A stretch of 64,000 nt of DNA from Candidatus Multivorans sp. (GTDB taxonomy: Bacteria > Acidobacteriota > Thermoanaerobaculia > Multivoradales > Multivoraceae). This document shows positions 7,944 through 16,600 of this stretch, in pieces (within the stretch, counting starts at the first letter, position 1; every line of letters starts with the position of its first letter). Made by a program: the position numbers and the translations under genes. The notes below the pieces were generated by a model, which had not been told where the DNA came from, did not search any database, and saw nothing but the letters and a program-made list of their open reading frames with translations. The stretch lies in the NCBI GenBank assembly GCA_965247095.1, contig OZ251997.1, forward strand, positions 3,360,001 through 3,424,000, read 5' to 3'.

Positions 7944-9110
7944 TTGACTGCCAACCGCTTCTCCGGGCGCCTCGGAACAGTCCCGCGGGCCGCCGCACTC
8001 GGCGCTGCGCTGCTCGCTCTGGGCGCGGTCGCGGGTGCCCAGACACCGAGTCATTGCAAGGCCTTCGGCGACAGCATCACGGCCGGTGCCGGTGACGATC
8101 CGGGGCGCGCCGAGGCCGGCTATCCGCCCCGTCTCGAAGCTCTGGCGCCCGGCCTGGTGGTCGATAACCGGGGCGTCGGCGCCGAGCGGACGCCGGAAGG
8201 TCTGGCCCGCATCGACGGCGTGCTGGCGGAGCCGGGGGACTGCCTGTTGCTGATGGAGGGCACGAACGACATCGGCCGCGGCATTTCGCCGGAGACCACC
8301 CTGTTCAACCTGGACCGTATGGCCGCCCGAGCAGCCGCCGCCGGCCGGACGCCGTACCACGCCACCCTGATTCCCCGCTTGCCGAATGCCCGTTTCGATC
8401 CGAACAACTGGCAGAACCAGGATCTGGTGCAGTCGATCCGGCGGCTGGCGGCGATTCGAGGCCGCGGCCTGGTCGATCCGTTTGAGCTCTTCAGTACGCG
8501 GAAGCGCCTGTTCCACGCGTTCTACTACGCCGGCATCGAGGATCCCGTCGGGCACCCGAACGGCGCCGGCTACGACCTCCTCGCCTCGGTCTTCGCCGAC
8601 GTGCTCCAGGCTACGGACGCGGCGCCGCCCGTCCCGACACGGGTGATCCCGGCACACGGCGCCGAGGAGATTCCGCCCGCGAGTGCCCTGGAGGTCGAGG
8701 TGCGGGACTTCGGCAGCGCCATCGACACAGGTTCCGTGGTGCTCACGGTCGATGGCTCGCCGGCGCCGGCGCCTGGCGTCAGCGACGACGGACGTTGGCT
8801 GCGGTGGCGTTTCTCGCCGGCGGCGCCACTCGACGGCGTGGTGACGCTGTCCTTGCGCGCCAGCGATGCCGAGGGCAACGTCTACGACCGCATGGTGGGC
8901 CGCTTCCTGGTCGAGGGGGCCGTTCTGCCGCGGGGCGACATCGATCGGGACGGTCGCGTGGACGGCCGGGATCTGGTATTCCTGGGTCTCGCGTTCGGGG
9001 CGGCCTCGAGGTCCCGCCGCTTCGACGCCGATGCCGATTTCGACGGCAGCGGCCAGGTGGACGGCGAGGATCTGGCCATCCTCGCGGCGAACTTCGGCGC
9101 TGGTCTCTGA
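7944..9110 (+). CDS. Secreted SGNH/GDSL hydrolase with Ig-like and C-terminal dockerin-like domains
   Basis: FGDSIT, MEGTND, DPVGHPN; paired Ca-binding loops GDIDRDGRVDGRD and DADFDGSGQVDGED. Confidence 0.8.
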   Translation: MTANRFSGRLGTVPRAAALGAALLALGAVAGAQTPSHCKAFGDSITAGAGDDPGRAEAGYPPRLEALAPGLVVDNRGVGAERTPEGLARIDGVLAEPGDCLLLMEGTNDIGRGISPETTLFNLDRMAARAAAAGRTPYHATLIPRLPNARFDPNNWQNQDLVQSIRRLAAIRGRGLVDPFELFSTRKRLFHAFYYAGIEDPVGHPNGAGYDLLASVFADVLQATDAAPPVPTRVIPAHGAEEIPPASALEVEVRDFGSAIDTGSVVLTVDGSPAPAPGVSDDGRWLRWRFSPAAPLDGVVTLSLRASDAEGNVYDRMVGRFLVEGAVLPRGDIDRDGRVDGRDLVFLGLAFGAASRSRRFDADADFDGSGQVDGEDLAILAANFGAGL

Positions 9111-9127
9111 GAGCCAGGGGAGTGAAC

Positions 9128-10261
9128 ATGCAACTCGGCATCCTGGGCCTGCCCAAGGCCGGCAAGACGGCGCTGTTCAATGCGCTCACTGCCTCCCGGC
9201 AGGCGACCGGCAAGTTCCGGGCCTCGAACACCACGAACGTTGGAATCGCCCAGGTACGGGACCGGCGCCTGGAGAAGCTCCGGGATCTCTACCAGCCGCG
9301 GCGCTACGTGCCGGCGCAGGTCCGATGCGTCGATGTTCCCGGCATCGACCGGGGCCGGGGAGAGACCCTGGACCTGGCTGAACTGCGGATGATGGACGCC
9401 CTGGTCCACGTCGTGCGCGCCTTTGAGGACCCGGAACTCCTGCACCCGGCGGGTCGCATCGACCCGCAGCGCGACATCGCCACGATCGATCTGGAGCTGA
9501 TTCTCGCGGACCACGAGGTGGTGGAGCGGCGACTGGAGCGTCTCGATCAGGCGCAGAAGAGAGGCCTCACCGACCTGGAGAAGCGGGAGCGCGCGATGCT
9601 GTCGGACCGCATTCTGCCGGCGCTCGAGGCGGAAACACCGCTGCGCCTCATGGACCTCGACGCGGAGGACGAGAAGCGGCTGCGCGGCTACGGCCTCCTG
9701 TCCCGAAAGCCGATGCTGGTGGTGCTGAATGTCGACGAGGACGTGGCGGGCGACCCCGCTGCGGTGGCCGGGGTCGAAGCGCCGCCCGGGGCCGAACCCG
9801 GGTGGCGCGAAGCCGCGCCAGCCGCGAACCAGTCCGGGCGCTCGTCATCGAGCGCTCGGATGGACCTCCTTGCCGTGAGCGCTTGCCTGGAAGAGGAGAT
9901 CTCCCGTCTCGACCTGGCCGATCAGGGCGACTTCCTGGCCGAAGCGGGACTCGACCAGCCGAGTGCGGTCCGGGTGGTGCAGGCGGGCTACGAGCTGCTG
10001 GGGCTGATCTCCTTCTTCACCGTCGGCGACGACGAGGTCCGCGCGTGGACCATCCGCCGGGGCAGCGCGGCGGTGACCGCGGCGGGCGCCGTTCACTCCG
10101 ACATCGAGCGTGGCTTCATTCGCGCCGAGGTGACCGGGTGGCAGGAACTGATCGACGCCGGATCGCTGGCCGTCTGCCGCGAACGCGCGACCCTGCGCCT
10201 GGAGGGCAAGGGGTACCGTGTGCAGGACGGCGAGGTCGTCCACTTCCGGTTCAACGTGTAG
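9128..10261 (+). CDS. ychF: Redox-regulated ATPase YchF
   Basis: GILGLPKAGKT P-loop, DVPG, HVVRAF, FFTVGDDEVRAWT, IRAEV, LRLEGKGYRVQDGEVVHFRFNV. Confidence 0.95.
   Translation: MQLGILGLPKAGKTALFNALTASRQATGKFRASNTTNVGIAQVRDRRLEKLRDLYQPRRYVPAQVRCVDVPGIDRGRGETLDLAELRMMDALVHVVRAFEDPELLHPAGRIDPQRDIATIDLELILADHEVVERRLERLDQAQKRGLTDLEKRERAMLSDRILPALEAETPLRLMDLDAEDEKRLRGYGLLSRKPMLVVLNVDEDVAGDPAAVAGVEAPPGAEPGWREAAPAANQSGRSSSSARMDLLAVSACLEEEISRLDLADQGDFLAEAGLDQPSAVRVVQAGYELLGLISFFTVGDDEVRAWTIRRGSAAVTAAGAVHSDIERGFIRAEVTGWQELIDAGSLAVCRERATLRLEGKGYRVQDGEVVHFRFNV
9794..9864 (+). repeat. Double-hairpin palindromic element (module X) inserted in-frame in ychF
   Basis: GAACCCGGGTGGCGCGAAGCCGCGCCAGCCGCGAACCAGTCCGGGCGCTCGTCATCGAGCGCTCGGATGGA; encodes EPGWREAAPAANQSGRSSSSARMD. 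Confidence 0.85.
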
Positions 10262-10997: not shown

Positions 10998-11948
10998 TCA
11001 GGAGTACGGTTCCAGTTGCGTCAACCGGGTGAGGACCGCGTTGGCGATCTGTGAGCCCACCTCCGCCTCGAAGACGAGAATGTCGCTTTCGGCGCCGTCG
11101 TAGGACTCGCTCCAGAGTACGGTTCCGTCCTCGGCCAGGAGCAGGCGGGCCCAGACCCGGAGGCGATCCTGCTCCCGCTGAACCCGGCCGTCGAGCAGGT
11201 AGTCGGCTGAAAGCCCGTTCGCTCCGCCGCCGGCGCTTGGGAAGGGTCGGGCGTCGTACGCGACGACCGCCAGCCGATCGCCCGCCTGCTGGCCGAGCGA
11301 CGTGATGAGCTCCTGGGCCAGGCCCTGGCGGAACGGCTCGGCGCCGGACCATGTCTCCACCGCCGCGAAGGGCAGGACCGCCAGCACCTGCCGTGACGGT
11401 TCGCTCGCGGTGGATGGTCCGGAGTCCAGCGTGCGCCAGACGAAGATCGTGGCGACGATGCCGAGGGCCGCCCCGAGAGCGGCGAGCACGGCGCCGGGTC
11501 CTGACCGCCAGCGCCGGGCGGTGCCGCCCCTGCTGAGGGTCGGTTCGTCGCCGTCGTTGACGTCGCTGACGGGCTTCAGGAAGCGGTACCCGAGGCGCGG
11601 CAGCGTTTCGATGTACTCGGGTGTGTCGGCGCTGTCGCCAAGTGCGACCCGGATCCGCTTGACACAGGAGTTCATGCTCTGGTCGTACTCGACGTGGACT
11701 TCGTCGGGCCAGAGATGGCGGCGGACGGCCTCGCGCGAGACCACTGCGCCACGGTGCGCGATCAGTAACTCGAGGAGTCGGGCGGGTTGGGGCTGAAGCC
11801 GTACCGTGCGCCCGAGGCCGGAGAGTTCGAGGGTCTCGGGATCGAAGCGGAACTCGCCGAACTTAAGCCGGCGAGGGCGTGCAGGGAAGGTGCGGTCGGG
11901 TTTCGTGCCCAGGCGTCCCTCGTGCGACGAGTCGTTATCGCGCTGCAT
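10998..11948 (-). CDS. Membrane-anchored winged-helix (OmpR/CadC/ToxR-type) transcriptional regulator with TolB-N-like domain
   Basis: FGEFRFDP...RLQPQPARLL...IETLPRLGYRF wHTH; one TM helix; LAVLPF...YLLDGRVQR. Confidence 0.85.
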   Translation of the reverse strand: MQRDNDSSHEGRLGTKPDRTFPARPRRLKFGEFRFDPETLELSGLGRTVRLQPQPARLLELLIAHRGAVVSREAVRRHLWPDEVHVEYDQSMNSCVKRIRVALGDSADTPEYIETLPRLGYRFLKPVSDVNDGDEPTLSRGGTARRWRSGPGAVLAALGAALGIVATIFVWRTLDSGPSTASEPSRQVLAVLPFAAVETWSGAEPFRQGLAQELITSLGQQAGDRLAVVAYDARPFPSAGGGANGLSADYLLDGRVQREQDRLRVWARLLLAEDGTVLWSESYDGAESDILVFEAEVGSQIANAVLTRLTQLEPYS

Positions 11949-12081
11949 GAGCTTGCCCTTGGACTACTGCGAGTGAGCTGTTGTTTGGCGTTTTCCAGCC
12001 CCGAAAGTGGTGTTCCGAATTGGGGACCCTGGTTTTAGAGGACACAAAAGGACACTACGCACGAAGCATTCCGGGCGATGC

Positions 12082-12117
12082 GTGACAGTTGTGTGACCAG
12101 TTCGTGACCCCCGTGAC
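12082..12117 (-). promoter_or_regulatory. Phased GTCAC direct repeats (Pho-box/OmpR-family-like site) upstream of the wHTH regulator
   Basis: GTGAC on + at 12082, 12093, 12104, 12113 (11/11/9 spacing); minus strand GGTCACACAACTGTCAC resembles a Pho box. Confidence 0.5.
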
Positions 12118-12409
12118 CTGCGCCGTCGCTTGCTATGGCAAGCGCGGACCCAAGCCTGGATCACTGTGCGGAGCTACTGGCGCCAGGGGAGCGACGGAGC
12201 GTCAGGTACCGCGATTTCGGCGGTCCGTTGGCTCTGAGGGAACATCGGATGCATCGCGTGTCCGAGTCCTGGCCGGCCCTGGCTTCTCGCGGTGCAACGC
12301 CTGGGCGGGAGCCGAACATTCCGGCCCCGGGCCTCGGCGTGTTTGTCAGGGGACGTAAATCCTTGGCACAGTCGTACTTACGGCGTCGGTGTGCTAGGTT
12401 CTGCGGGCC

Positions 12410-12460
12410 AAAAAAAGAGGATAGGGACCGCTCCGGGGTTCTCACCCGAACCGACCTTAG
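12410..12460 (-). terminator. 3' end of the large RNA: GGGU-GAGA-ACCC hairpin, terminal helix strand and U-tract
   Basis: Minus strand ...GGTTCGGGTGAGAACCCCGGAGCGGTCCCTATCCTCTTTTTTT. Confidence 0.6.
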
Positions 12461-13272
12461 GTCTCTCATCCCTCGCTCGCGTTTCCTCAACCCTTCAGCT
12501 TGGCGGGCATCCGGTCGTGGAGCGCTTTGCGCGCCACCGATCCTTCCGTTCAGGCCTGGGCGCCCTCGCCTTGCGGCTCCGGCGGTGGAACCTTGCGGCC
12601 CCTCCAGCCCCGTCCGAGTTTGCCGGGACTCCCCTTCGCCTACCCGTTGCCTTCGGGTCTCCCGCTCCGGCTTGCGCCTTCGCATTCAACCCTCCGGCTC
12701 GGGTGGCCGAAAGGTCCGCGCCGTCGTTCCGCCATGGCCGGTTCCTCGGCTTGCGCCTCCGAACCGATCACTTTGCGGCCCGCCGTCGCGGGGACTCCCT
12801 GCCTCTCTCTCCGCCGACATGGCGCCTTTGGGGGTACTTCGTCGCTCAACTGGTCGGGTCTCACGACGAAGCCCCCGAAGCGTCTGCCGATGAAGCGCTT
12901 CAGTTAGCGATCAGCCTTCCGTTGCTGCCGGGCAACTTCCGACCGTTCGCCCCCCTGAAGCCGCCTCCCTGGTTCAGGCGCCACGAGGCTTGCGCCCCTC
13001 GGTGCCACTCCCGGGGAAGCCTTCGGCTACGGGAGTCACTCGCTAGCTGGAACTCCATGTCGTCGGGGTCGCTCCGGCTTGCGCCTCGGTTTCCCCGGCT
13101 CCAAATGGCTCCTGCCACCGAGCCCGGCTCTCAAGTCGTGACCTTCCTACCCTCGCTCTTCAAGTGCGCCCACCACGCGAACGTGACTTTCGCCCTTCTC
13201 AAGCTCCGATCTGAGGGCCTCGGCTCTTGGACCGGTGGATTGGGTTGCGATCCTTGGTCACAGTCCCTATCC
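12419..13272 (-). ncRNA. Candidate large (~854 nt) highly structured non-coding RNA of unrecognised class
   Basis: 5' GGAUAGGGACUG pairs with 3' CGGUCCCUAUCC; four GGC-GCAA-GCC hairpins plus other GNRA/UUCG loops; own promoter and U-tract; no credible ORF. Confidence 0.75.
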
Positions 13273-13279
13273 GCGAAAC

Positions 13280-13309
13280 AACGTATAGGGCGCCTGAAGG
13301 TTGTGTCAA
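13280..13309 (-). promoter_or_regulatory. Sigma70-type promoter of the large RNA
   Basis: TTGACA (13309-13304), 18-nt spacer, TACGTT (13285-13280); 7 nt further is G13272, the first base of the terminal helix. Confidence 0.75.
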
Positions 13310-13492
13310 GGGAAGGGCGGCGGACGGCCTCGGGCCGATGCTTGCGGGAGAGCCTTAACCGATTGAACCTCAGCAACTTGACCCTTGCAACCTTGAATTC
13401 GATCGGGTCGGTGACGGCTGCGGATTTCCTGCGGAATCGGGTGGCTGCCGCAGAAGCCGGCTCGTTTGCTCCCGCTTGCGGGGCGGCGCGGA

Positions 13493-13568
13493 TGGTGCCC
13501 AGGGGCGGATTCGAACCACCGACACCCTGATTTTCAGTCAGGTGCTCTACCGACTGAGCTACCTGGGC
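13493..13568 (-). tRNA. tRNA-Phe(GAA)
   Basis: GCCCAGGTAGCTCAGTCGGTAGAGCACCTGACTGAAAATCAGGGTGTCGGTGGTTCGAATCCGCCCCTGGGCACCA: cloverleaf, GAA anticodon, encoded CCA. Confidence 0.98.
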
Positions 13569-13604
13569 AAGTCGCGCGCGCCGGCCAGGGCGCTAGAGCA
13601 GCGT

Positions 13605-13634
13605 GTTCTAACAGGCATGCGGCGAGCCAGTCAA
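13605..13634 (-). promoter_or_regulatory. Putative sigma70 promoter of tRNA-Phe
   Basis: TTGACT, 18 nt, TAGAAC, preceded by TG. Confidence 0.45.
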
Positions 13635-13671
13635 TGGAGCGCCGGGTGCAGAACGACTAGAGTAGTGGACC

Positions 13672-16600
13672 ATGCGACAATCCAGAAGCGCCGTCCAGCG
13701 TAGACCTGCTCACCTTCCCGCGGACCGAAGGGGCTTCGGCGCGGGCTCGCGATCGGGCTTCCTGGTCGCCCTTACGGCCGCGTCGATCAGCCTGCTGACG
13801 ATGGGAGTTGAGGCGGCGCAAGGACAGCGCCTGCTGAGCCTGGGCTCTGAACCGGCGGAACCTCCAGTCGCCGAGGCCGCACGCATCGACCCGGTCGCGG
13901 GGCCCGTGACGGTGCAGGTCGATCTCGATCTGGTCCGTTCGGCGCCGTCTCGGCTGGAACTGCCGACTTCAGACGGTCGGGTGCTCGTCGCGGAGCGGAG
14001 CGTCTTCGAGGATCGCGGCAACGGCAACGTGATGTGGGCGGGCAGCTTTCCTGGAGCGGGCTACGAGAGCGTCGTCCTGACGGTGGAGGACGGTAGCTTT
14101 GTGGGGCGGTTCGGCGAACCGGGAGGCGCCAAGTTCCGAATCAGCGCGGATCCGTCAGGTCGCGGCAGGATGGTCGACACCGCGCGCACCGGGTGACGCC
14201 CCGGAGACCTTCTGTCCGGTCGGTCTGGAGCCCGACAGTCTGTCGCGGGTCGGCCCGGTAGAGCCGCGGCGCGTCGACCTGCAGCAGCGGGTGGCGAGTC
14301 CCCAAAGCCACGACCGGCTGGACATCCTGGTGCTTTACACGGCGCAGGCGGCGCGGAACTGGGCGAACCGCGGCGGCGCCGTGGCCTCGATCCGGAACGC
14401 CGGCGACTATCTCAACCTGGTGCTCCGTAACGGCCAGTTGGGAGTCGAAGCGAACATCGTCCACGTCGCCAGAGCGCCCGCTGCTCTCGAGGCCGTGGCC
14501 AGAGATGGTGTTGGCCCGTACGGCGGCAACCTGCTCACGCAACTGCGCTGGAACGGCGACGTCCTTCAACTACGAAGGCAGCACGATGCCGACCTGGTCC
14601 ATCTGTTCACGGGCGAGAGCACGAGACTGCTCCAGTTTTGCGGTTTCGCCTCCTTGCTGCCCCGCGACTGGACGGCTGACCGGTTCTCGCCCTTCGCTCA
14701 CGGCTGGACCACGAACGACTGTTCCGGCGACGATCTAATCTTCGCCCACGAGATCGGCCACGGATTGGGCGCCAACCACGACCCTCCGAATGCCACTCAG
14801 ACTCAGATTGAGCAGGCCGTAACGCCGTACGCATTCGGCCACGCCAACCAAGATCACATACCGAACGTCGGAACGCTCATGAGCTACCGCGGCCAGACGG
14901 AGCCGTACTTCTCGTCCGTGCGGATCAGGCCCAGGCGACGGACGATCGGCGTCGCTGGCGAGCAGGAGAACGAGCGCGCGCTTCGCAGCACCGTGAAGAT
15001 CGGCGTAGGCTACAGCGACGCGATACAGCCGCCGTCGGAGGACGCCCCCGCCGCGCCGACGAACGTTCGCGTCGAGGTAACCGGGGCGACATCAGCTCGC
15101 GTCAGTTGGGACGACAACTCGGACGATGAAGAGGGCTTTCGAGTCTGGGTTGCAGCAGCAGGGTGAACCGATCGCGGTCGGGCGATTGGTTGGCGCCGAC
15201 CAGGAGTCTTTCGAAGTCGATGACCTCGAGCTTGGCTTCAACTTCTTCTGGGTGACTTCGCACATCGGCAGCGCCCGTTCCTGGAGAACCAGCTTCGTGG
15301 ATGCCGTCGTGCCTGGGGCCGAGCCGGCCGCGCCGACGGATTTGAGCGTCACATCGTTCGGAAGCTTCGCGATCGTGACGTGGACCGACAACTCGGACGA
15401 CGAGACCGGCTTCGAAGTCCAGGTTCTGCGCGGGGGCGAACTCTGGTTCCGGGACGCCCTCCCCGCCGGTCAACGGTTCGCCATCGTCACGGGCCTTGAG
15501 CCAGGCGTTCGCTACGTCTATCGGGTGTCCGCGTACGGTAGTGGCGGCTTGTCCTGGAGCGAGAACGTGGCCGTGGTGTCGCCGGAGCGTAGCGGGCCCG
15601 CGCCACCCACGAATCTCCGCGCGACCCTGACCGACGCCACCTCGGTTCGCCTGACCTGGACCGACAACTCGGCCGACGAGGTCGGTTTTCAGGTTCGGGC
15701 CGCCGTCTGGGGTTGGTCCGAGTTCTTCCCGGTTGACGCCGACACGGAATCCATCGAGATTCCCGGGCTGGCCCGAGGCGGTCGCTATTTCTTCAGCGTG
15801 GTGGCCGAGGACGCCGAGGGACTCACCGGGTTGAGTGACACCCTGATCGTCCCGCTCGGTGTGGGCGGCCGGGGACCGCGGGCGCCGAGGCGTCTTCGAG
15901 CGACACCGATCGACCCGGTCTCCGCGCGACTGACGTGGGAGGACGACTCGACGGACGAACTGGGCTTCGAGATCCAGGTCCGGCAGTTCGGCGACTGGGG
16001 GCGAACCGCCCTGGTCGGTGCCAACGAGGAGGCCTTTCTGCTGAGAGGCCTGACGCCCGGGAGCGTCGACGACTACCGCGTCTTCGCGTACAACGACACC
16101 GGATTCTCCGGTGCCAGCAACTCCGTGACCGTGAAACTACGCGGGGGCACCGTCCCCACGGAGTTCACGGCGGCGCCATCGGGCGCCTCTGCAATCGACC
16201 TGAAGTGGTCCGGGAGGTGGGCCCAGAGGTCGCTTGGCCTTGTCTCGGTCGAGGGGCGCAACCCCGAATCCGGCTGGGTTGAACTGGTGACAGCCGAAGC
16301 CGCGGCCGGTTCGGTTCAGGTCACCGGTCTGATGACCGACACCCCCTACACTTTCCGTCTCGCAGCGTTGGCCGGCGGCTCACGGTCGTTCTCCGAGGAA
16401 GCCAGCGCGACCACGGGCGCCTACCGCGACGCCTGCCGTACAGGCGGGCAGTACCTGTGCCTGCGGGATGGCCGCTTCGAGGTGCAGGCGCACTGGACGA
16501 ACCCGGACATAGTGGGTGACTACGGCTTCGGCACCGGGGTTCCCATCGACTTTTCCGACGAATCGGGTCTGTTCTGGTTCTTCGAGCCGAACAACGTGGA

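Follow-up and report, generated by a model that had tools for sequence, protein, structure and literature searches.

The window analysed here is a stretch of 64,000 nucleotides (64 kb) from Candidatus Multivorans sp. (contig OZ251997.1), whose genome of 4.6 Mb is designated G000. Next to a tRNA-Phe gene, it contains what is highly probably a stand-alone gene for a large structured non-coding RNA (ncRNA). This RNA lies outside Rfam, has an apparent promoter of its own on the minus strand and a fold closed by its two ends, and is very abundant in one sponge-associated genus. All coordinates are positions in the window, and the RNA gene is read on the minus strand. Loops and promoter were compared in 34 aligned homologues and pairing in 33 distinct sequences, all homologues belonging to a single genus. 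The gene is delimited by the following features.

13493-13568, minus strand: tRNA-Phe(GAA), the upstream neighbour, adjacent to the RNA gene in 15 of 15 loci compared and also in L014 and L008.
12323-13487, no strand assigned: block of ~1165 nt that holds the RNA gene, starts 6 nt past tRNA-Phe and is missing in genome G003 (pairwise BLAST).
13304-13309, minus strand: -35 box TTGACA, the same in 33 of the 34 aligned homologues, with TTGACT, offset in the alignment, in the remaining one.
13280-13285, minus strand: -10-like hexamer TACGTT, 18 nt past the -35 box, with T1, A2, T5 and T6 invariant in the 34 sequences.
12410-13272, minus strand: predicted transcript, ~863 nt here, its ends placed by sequence and conservation.
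13260-13272, minus strand: 5' strand of the closing helix P1, forming 13 pairs with 12419-12431.
12419-12431, minus strand: 3' strand of P1, directly abutting the T-run.
12410-12418, minus strand: T-run UCUUUUUUU, directly after the strand 12430-12419; conservation stops here.

The predicted RNA starts at G13272, 7 nt past TACGTT. The putative promoter is called on its conservation and not on a strong -10 box. At the 5' end, GGAUAGGGACUG (13272-13261) pairs with CGGUCCCUAUCC (12430-12419) over 12 bp, including one G-U. Across the 33 sequences, 100% of the P1 cells are paired; 10 of the 13 pairs never vary, and in the other three only one side changes. Purines make up 60% of the RNA strand, and the strand skews agree. 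Four GGC-GCAA-GCC hairpins occur at 12669-78, 12748-57, 12987-96 and 13076-85, three of which were also recovered as one repeat family. Further hairpins are GCC-GCAA-GGC at 12568-77, CACG-UUCG-CGUG at 13174-85 and GGGU-GAGA-ACCC at 12447-12436. In total, GCAA occurs 12 times, against an expectation of 3.8 ± 1.7, and none of 500 dinucleotide shuffles reached 12. The preliminary description of this stretch, made from the letters alone, had named the closing helix, the repeated GCAA hairpins and the purine-rich transcribed strand. All of these held, and every coordinate that was checked for the boxes, P1, the T-run and the GCAA, UUCG and GAGA hairpins was correct.

Conservation follows the proposed gene from promoter to end, as alignments of the homologues begin at the -35 box and finish at the T-run. 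A comparison of 15 of the 33 loci gave, for distant clades, identities of 79-92% in the promoter, 40-55% in the upstream spacer and 31-47% in the downstream flank; for the distant clade taken singly, the values are 84-89% in the promoter and 40-53% in the spacer on the tRNA-Phe side.

The stretch is present as abundant RNA. Of 24 sequencing runs listed, 20 contained the stretch or part of it (nine studies), and eight of the 20 are on record as RNA; several matching runs are labelled sponge metagenome. Depth was analysed for the region 11400-14600 in the contigs of four RNA libraries from three studies (X9 and X11 from one study, X18 and X19 from two others). The summed contig depth amounts to 1.6e2 to 6.8e5 in bins 12470-13325. 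No depth at all is recorded in any bin from 11507 to 12362 or in 13326-13432. From 13647 on, the depth does not exceed 17.5, and the tRNA bins show 0.6-771. In these sponge metatranscriptome contigs, the depth of the RNA is far above that of every neighbouring gene covered. DNA carry-over cannot give such a contrast in depth, and the signal is therefore attributed to RNA. An abundant minus-strand transcript running from 13272 to about 12412 had been anticipated; the abundance on this stretch is borne out, and the contigs are silent on the strand and on both ends.

The sequence shows no sign of coding for a protein. Variable columns are spread over the codon phases without periodicity (112, 106 and 104), and the length of 373 of 381 indel runs is not divisible by three. 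Depending on the genome, the longest open frame has 94 to 257 codons in sense and 107 to 301 in antisense direction, and none is conserved. The overlapping open reading frames (ORFs) have no Pfam match, in agreement with their earlier dismissal as nonsense. One of them, an ORF of 412 amino acids on the plus strand (12292-13530), spans the entire RNA gene and the tRNA in antisense orientation. It lacks a Pfam match and conservation as well, and is a spurious long ORF, lying on the pyrimidine-rich strand, whose composition makes stop codons rare.

These data leave next to no chance that the locus is not an RNA gene, that is, that it codes for a protein such as the 412-residue product or forms the long 5' leader of a regulator. 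Such a reading could point to the long ORFs that overlap on both strands and to a Trans_reg_C (response-regulator-like) gene 464 nt downstream on the same strand. The frames are, however, unconserved, with neither codon periodicity nor a Pfam match, and nearly all indel runs shift them. Furthermore, the regulator stays in place in genomes without the RNA, and the RNA contigs give zero depth in the interval from the RNA gene to the regulator. The ncRNA call thus withstood the search for a conserved reading frame.

No known RNA family accounts for the gene. With Rfam 15 (4227 families) at gathering scores, only the tRNA-Phe passes in the 64-kb window. At E values up to 10 on 12200-13700, the best overlap with the RNA scored 14.7 bits (ar45, MIAT), and three homologous loci gave no match at E up to 1. 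Several specific candidates were rejected. For ROOL (RF03087), the search of G000 at E up to 1 gave no match, the control genomes likewise giving none, and the cmscan of the region was also negative. The same holds for OLE (RF01071), for which G000 and the controls gave nothing at E up to 1 and the region gave no match either. GOLLD, which we take to be among the 4227 families, gave no match and was tested only through the all-family cmscan. As regards a group II intron, no intron family appeared in the Rfam scans and RF01998 (group-II-D1D4-1) had no match in G000; the RNA gene is intergenic with its own -35 and -10 boxes and is not inserted in a host gene. A housekeeping RNA in disguise is ruled out, as these RNAs are found elsewhere in G000: RNase P RNA (RF00010, 232.6 bits), tmRNA (RF00023, 134.7 bits), 6S RNA (RF00013, 71.7 bits) and the signal recognition particle (SRP) RNA (RF00169, 60 bits).

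The earlier exclusion of RNase P, tmRNA and introns is thereby upheld, and the Rfam scan leaves the claimed novelty standing. The sources located on sponges, Thermoanaerobaculia and ncRNA contain, in the portions available, no account of this RNA. No paper was found that names Candidatus Multivorans, and none that names GOLLD, ROOL and Acidobacteri* together. The RNA belongs to no described family and joins the large ornate bacterial RNAs in kind, without homology. Like them, it is longer than about 500 nt (620-863 nt), has many conserved helices with covarying pairs (38 helices here) and lacks a coding signal, and it is present as RNA at depths of 10^3-10^5 with about 0 on the flanks, as judged from contigs in which strand and ends are not read. 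The undescribed class of large ncRNA suggested at the outset is supported in that homologues without an Rfam family covary and are non-coding.

The predicted fold is more stable than expected from composition, with a minimum free energy of -426.3 kcal/mol compared with -377.2 ± 10.5 in 20 shuffles (z -4.68; none of the 20 as good). A consensus structure was obtained with RNAalifold from 15 long forms and comprises 278 pairs in 38 helices. Over the 33 sequences, 94.2% of the cells of these pairs are paired, compared with 34-45% when the partners are slid. Changes on both sides were observed for 31 pairs, compared with 11-19 for slid partners and 19.1 ± 2.5 for shuffled ones (0 of 500 reach 31). 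An independent check is provided by the divergent homologue of genome G170, which is 69% identical in the 5' part. Of its 204 pairs with letters, 133 are unchanged, 21 are changed on both sides and still paired, 28 are changed on one side and still paired, 20 are changed and broken, and two are unchanged non-pairs. The proposed search for covarying homologues has accordingly been answered in the affirmative. By the pattern of conserved pairing, the RNA folds into several domains, and its 5' and 3' ends pair to close the structure. Its constant parts, in the order of the transcript, are predicted as follows.

13242-13259, minus strand: 5' strand of helix 2, pairing with 12453-12472; 13 pairs, 99.1% of cells paired, both strands nearly invariant.
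13133-13226, minus strand: 5' domain, helices 4-8, with a UUCG-capped hairpin at 13172-13187; UUCG is kept in 33 of 34 homologues.
13039-13122, minus strand: arm A, helices 10-11, with a GCAA tetraloop at 13079-13082 kept in 33 of 34; seven pairs changed on both sides.
12963-13020, minus strand: arm B, helices 14-16, with a GCAA cap that is GAAA in 20 of 34 homologues; six pairs changed on both sides.
12897-12961, minus strand: domain C, helices 17-19, with the hairpin loop CCGGCA (12926-12931) identical in 33 of 34.
12830-12876, minus strand: hairpin D, helix 21, 17 pairs, 99.8% of cells paired; loop CCGACCA (12851-12857) identical in 34 of 34.
12474-12543, minus strand: 3' domain, 3' strand of helix 3 and helices 35-37, including the nearly invariant AUGCCCGCCAAGCUG (12496-12510).
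12432-12450, minus strand: last local hairpin UUCGGG...CCCGGA, helix 38; 100% of cells paired, three pairs vary on one side and the loop sequence varies.

At pair 110:157 of the 5' domain, 18 sequences have CG and 14 have UA, and at pair 375:416 of domain C, 17 have GC and 16 have AU. GNRA loops cap six hairpins. Two non-GNRA loops are invariant, one of them being CCGGCA, which holds the self-complementary CCGG. For the 5' domain, RNAalifold on 20 sequences additionally proposed an alternative long-range pairing of GGUGGGC with GCCCGCC from the 12510-12496 region. As for pseudoknots, the column-pair statistics were too noisy at the available diversity to name any.

Words from the two invariant loops recur elsewhere in the RNA. 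CCCGGC is found at the loop region 12926-12931 and in the 3' strand of helix 9 (12622-12627), and GACCA is found in the loop 12851-12857 and at the 5' end within helix 2 (13256-13259). Such repetition of loop words in strands of long-range helices could permit other pairings, also between molecules, or could have arisen by chance, the RNA being rich in GC.

The length of the RNA varies from ~620 nt in the shortest homologues to ~863 nt in this window, with homologue forms of ~905, 826, 740 and 662 aligned nt. These forms differ by whole GCAA-capped arms gained or lost, the core being untouched. Three variable modules are present here.

12716-12791, minus strand: variable module 1, a GCAA-capped arm, helices 22-25, in 22 of 34 homologues and missing from short forms.
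12632-12714, minus strand: variable module 2, a GCAA-capped arm, helices 26-30, in 21 of 34.
12546-12617, minus strand: variable module 3, a forked arm with two GCAA loops, helices 31-34, in 16-17 of 34.

The arm tips repeat one another; a 17-nt exact repeat at the tip of arm A recurs in module 2, and the junction motif GGGAGUCCC of module 2 is repeated at a distance of 166 nt. Therefore, the arms look like duplications inserted at junctions of the constant core. A 60-nt piece in genome G162 (L099:1033-1092) matches, with 92% identity, the stretch where module 3 meets the 3' domain (query 745-805). It lies far from the full copy of the RNA in G162, just past an apparent ORF end, and could be left over from recombination or be a motif common to both places.

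Repeated arms of this kind invite comparison with protein-titrating regulatory RNAs such as CsrB/RsmZ or 6S. The modules would then serve as docking sites, their number would set the capacity, and the abundance of the RNA would effect sequestration. The near-identical arm tips with their 17-nt exact repeat and four GGCGCAAGCC hairpins, the differing repeat number between species, and the combination of high abundance with dispensability are all consistent with this role. However, neither GGA (33 compared with 32.4 expected) nor GGAGG (4 compared with 5.0) is enriched, and AGGA likewise shows no enrichment. The repeated loops are instead GNRA tetraloops, which usually make RNA-RNA contacts. Moreover, the non-repeated core and not the repeats is most conserved, short forms retain just two or three such hairpins, and a canonical 6S RNA is encoded elsewhere in G000. 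Titration of a protein is on balance unlikely. The narrower idea of a CsrA-like target or ribosome sponge was rejected: GGA, AGGA and GGAGG show no enrichment over composition.

The RNA gene occurs once in G000 and is present in 36 of 42 genomes of the genus (19 of 24 in an earlier draw). The exact first 20 nt were found in 31 records of a collection of species-representative genomes, and the titles of these records name metagenome-assembled genomes (MAGs) of Candidatus Multivorans, Thermoanaerobaculia, Holophagales or Acidobacteria. Outside the genus, the covariance model R1, which includes domain C, found no match in 131 genomes of the order and none in 150 other genomes of the phylum (Infernal, stricter filters). 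BLAST of 16 other genomes of the order gave a single 27-nt match with an E value of 1e-4, which was taken as chance. On two family-mates and three non-carriers, R1 reached only E values of 0.06 and 0.64, and with filters off, the best score at the syntenic loci of three non-carriers was 15.5 bits. A pattern scan of metagenomes yielded three contigs, all of them long forms with 88.7-89.3% identity. The RNA is dispensable and not essential, because six species of the genus are without the gene.

Within the genus, the core sequence is invariant across genomes whose YchF proteins are only 77-80% identical. A core conserved to this degree might form the active site of a ribozyme or of the catalytic RNA of a ribonucleoprotein, with the GNRA-capped peripheral arms as stabilisers, as in RNase P RNA and in group I and II introns; the 5'/3' closing helix would also suit this. 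This is quite improbable. No Rfam ribozyme or intron family matches, a canonical RNase P RNA is found elsewhere, and the absence from six species argues against housekeeping catalysis. In addition, the RNA is not inserted in a gene, and its contigs show no joints except for one low-depth skip.

On the same strand, the regulator gene follows the RNA, and farther out lie the genes for YchF and an M12 metallopeptidase; none is conserved as a unit with the RNA. In the non-carriers G003, G022 and G011, the interval from tRNA to regulator is only 380-470 nt. No att-like direct repeats were found at the locus, and no integrase, phage or other mobile gene was found nearby. The identity of YchF to that of G000 places carriers and non-carriers as follows.

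Non-carriers G167, G019 and G003: 85-87%.
Long-form carriers, 14 genomes: 84-98%.
Short-form carriers, most others: 77-80%.
Non-carriers G022, G013 and G011: 75-76%.

Since three non-carriers fall within the range of the long-form carriers and the short-form carriers are more distant, this single protein suggests at least one secondary loss of the RNA gene. The same data bear on the possibility that a small mobile insertion on the 3' side of tRNA-Phe brought in the RNA, which would be its cargo or what is left of it. The gene would then stem from a phage or another mobile element and have become fixed in the chromosome, with a function in mobile-element conflict and not in host physiology. A block of ~1165 nt that begins 6 nt past the tRNA and is missing in G003 would suit such an origin, as would the patchy distribution with six genomes lacking the RNA. 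ROOL and GOLLD are phage- and prophage-encoded and often lie near tRNA islands, according to the excerpted text of PMC12286853. Nevertheless, the lack of direct repeats and of mobile genes, the single copy at the same syntenic site in 15 of 15 loci compared, and searches of 50,697 phage and 72,556 plasmid records, which yielded no match, speak against it. Loss fits better than repeated gain, as YchF identity puts three non-carriers among carriers. An origin as mobile cargo is considered improbable.

The preferred explanation, which combines the RNA gene with a mode of action as an architectural RNA, is given a probability of roughly 0.45 when taken whole. The second half is the tentative one: it is proposed, with considerable doubt and by analogy, that the RNA acts through its folded shape, possibly by self-assembly, like ROOL, GOLLD and OLE. 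This proposal is made because of the GNRA enrichment, the invariant loops (one of them self-complementary), the modularity of the arms and the parallel to ROOL. The sequence-invariant core, consisting of the 5' and 3' domains and the two hairpins with invariant loops, would make specific contacts, while a variable number of GCAA-capped arms would pack by tetraloop-helix contacts within or between molecules. This packing could lead to a compact particle, possibly homo-oligomeric, which might scaffold or sequester a partner. A more specific version, in which the RNA is the protomer of a new RNA-only assembly whose copies join via the CCGGCA loop and the GCAA arms, and whose geometry or size is set by the number of arms, is rather unlikely. 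The remaining probability belongs to functions outside the readings named.

Several points weigh against the explanation that has just been set out. A promoter-rule scan returned 0 sites at the locus, because TACGTT fits the -10 consensus at only three of six positions and is thus a weak -10 box. Of the promoter named in the preliminary description, the -35 box stands and is conserved, and the -10 box is weaker than was implied there. A terminator-rule scan found no local terminator hairpin at the T-run, because the T-run follows a long-range 5'/3' helix and not a local hairpin; termination by a helix that closes an 860-nt domain would be unusual. The RNA contigs carry no strand or end information. 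They cover ~12463-13260 and do not extend over 12412-12462 or 13261-13272, so that both P1 strands are without contig cover. One contig end at 12462 carries adapter-like letters, and the stop in cover near 12463 may be a real or processed 3' end or an artefact of short, strain-variable unitigs. With regard to the fold, the tested structure came from the same alignment, which favours it, and many helices never vary, as the homologues are 69-95% identical and belong to one genus. One of five measures, the number of further pair types, does not exceed shuffles (158 compared with 153.4, reached by 39 of 500). For the 5' domain, two RNAalifold runs disagree on the pairing. CCGG occurs 13 times compared with 10.8 expected, and a palindrome of 4 nt can arise by chance in an RNA this rich in GC. 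Finally, the RNA is lost in six species, it lacks a linked protein gene, unlike OLE, and the phage and plasmid records do not give it the context of ROOL and GOLLD.

Among known systems, ROOL is the closest parallel in kind. In the excerpts of PMC12286853, three large bacterial RNAs are described as recently shown to be RNA-only dimers or cages. ROOL is reported to equal 16S rRNA in abundance, yet to be non-essential; ROOL and GOLLD are often neighbours of tRNA genes, and kissing loops and A-minor contacts hold them together (PMC12286853). The RNA described here is likewise large (ROOL env-120 measures 659 nt), highly branched, very abundant, dispensable and a tRNA neighbour, and as far as those excerpts go, neither RNA has a known protein partner (PMC12286853). 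It differs in that there is no match in sequence or structure, its length varies by whole arms, and it is chromosomal and syntenic in one genus and has no counterpart among the phage and plasmid records searched. With GOLLD it shares a length above 800 nt, the tRNA neighbourhood, GNRA loops and a function that is open in both (PMC12286853, excerpts), whereas no Rfam family matches, no phage genes were found nearby and the phylum is a different one. The resemblance to both RNAs that had been noted at first sight therefore holds for size, GNRA richness and the neighbouring tRNA, and fails for homology.

OLE is also large, ornate and abundant and occurs in a narrow ecological group of bacteria. 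The present RNA does not match its model, and the neighbours are tRNA-Phe, a response-regulator-like gene, YchF and a metallopeptidase. OLE genes adjoin the genes of their protein partners. RNase P RNA (RF00010) resembles this RNA in its 5'/3' joining helix, invariant core and GNRA-capped peripheral hairpins; however, the RNA gives no match to it even at an E value of 10, has double its length and does not occur in six species. The raiA motif RNA is much shorter than this RNA. Both are abundant structured bacterial ncRNAs whose function is open, as far as the excerpts of PMC12968392 indicate for raiA. In contrast to the raiA motif, reported there from over 2700 species (PMC12968392), the RNA is confined to one genus and has no Rfam match.

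Some consequences of the finding can be drawn. To our knowledge, only a handful of bacterial RNAs longer than 500 nt with elaborate folds are known, and every one of them has raised fresh questions. The evidence for the present one is unusually clean, comprising conservation from promoter to terminator, covariation and natural variants that differ in length by whole arms. The one-genus range limits its general reach. The natural forms of ~620 nt and ~860 nt are ready-made deletion mutants for structural work, and the six species without the gene are natural knock-outs for comparative genomics. The RNA may point to a trait of uncultivated sponge symbionts, which are studied mainly through sequence. 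If the assembly proposed above were true, it would be the first RNA-only assembly outside the phage-borne RNAs of Firmicutes and of rumen and lake metagenomes, and one made in bulk by an animal symbiont.

Two minor observations concern the neighbouring genes. The antisense strand of tRNA-Phe (13495-13568, plus strand) matches Plastid-ycf2 with 28.4 bits, compared with a gathering score of 65.7, and the same is seen in two homologous loci; this match probably reflects a tRNA-derived model rather than biology. The YchF gene (9101-10258, plus strand) is matched by most genus-mates in two adjacent pieces (query 6-232 and 255-386), and in a few relatives one in-frame stop falls within the match. 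The pieces lie within one open frame of ~358 amino acids, and G000 and its nearest relatives carry ~22 extra residues in the middle of the protein.

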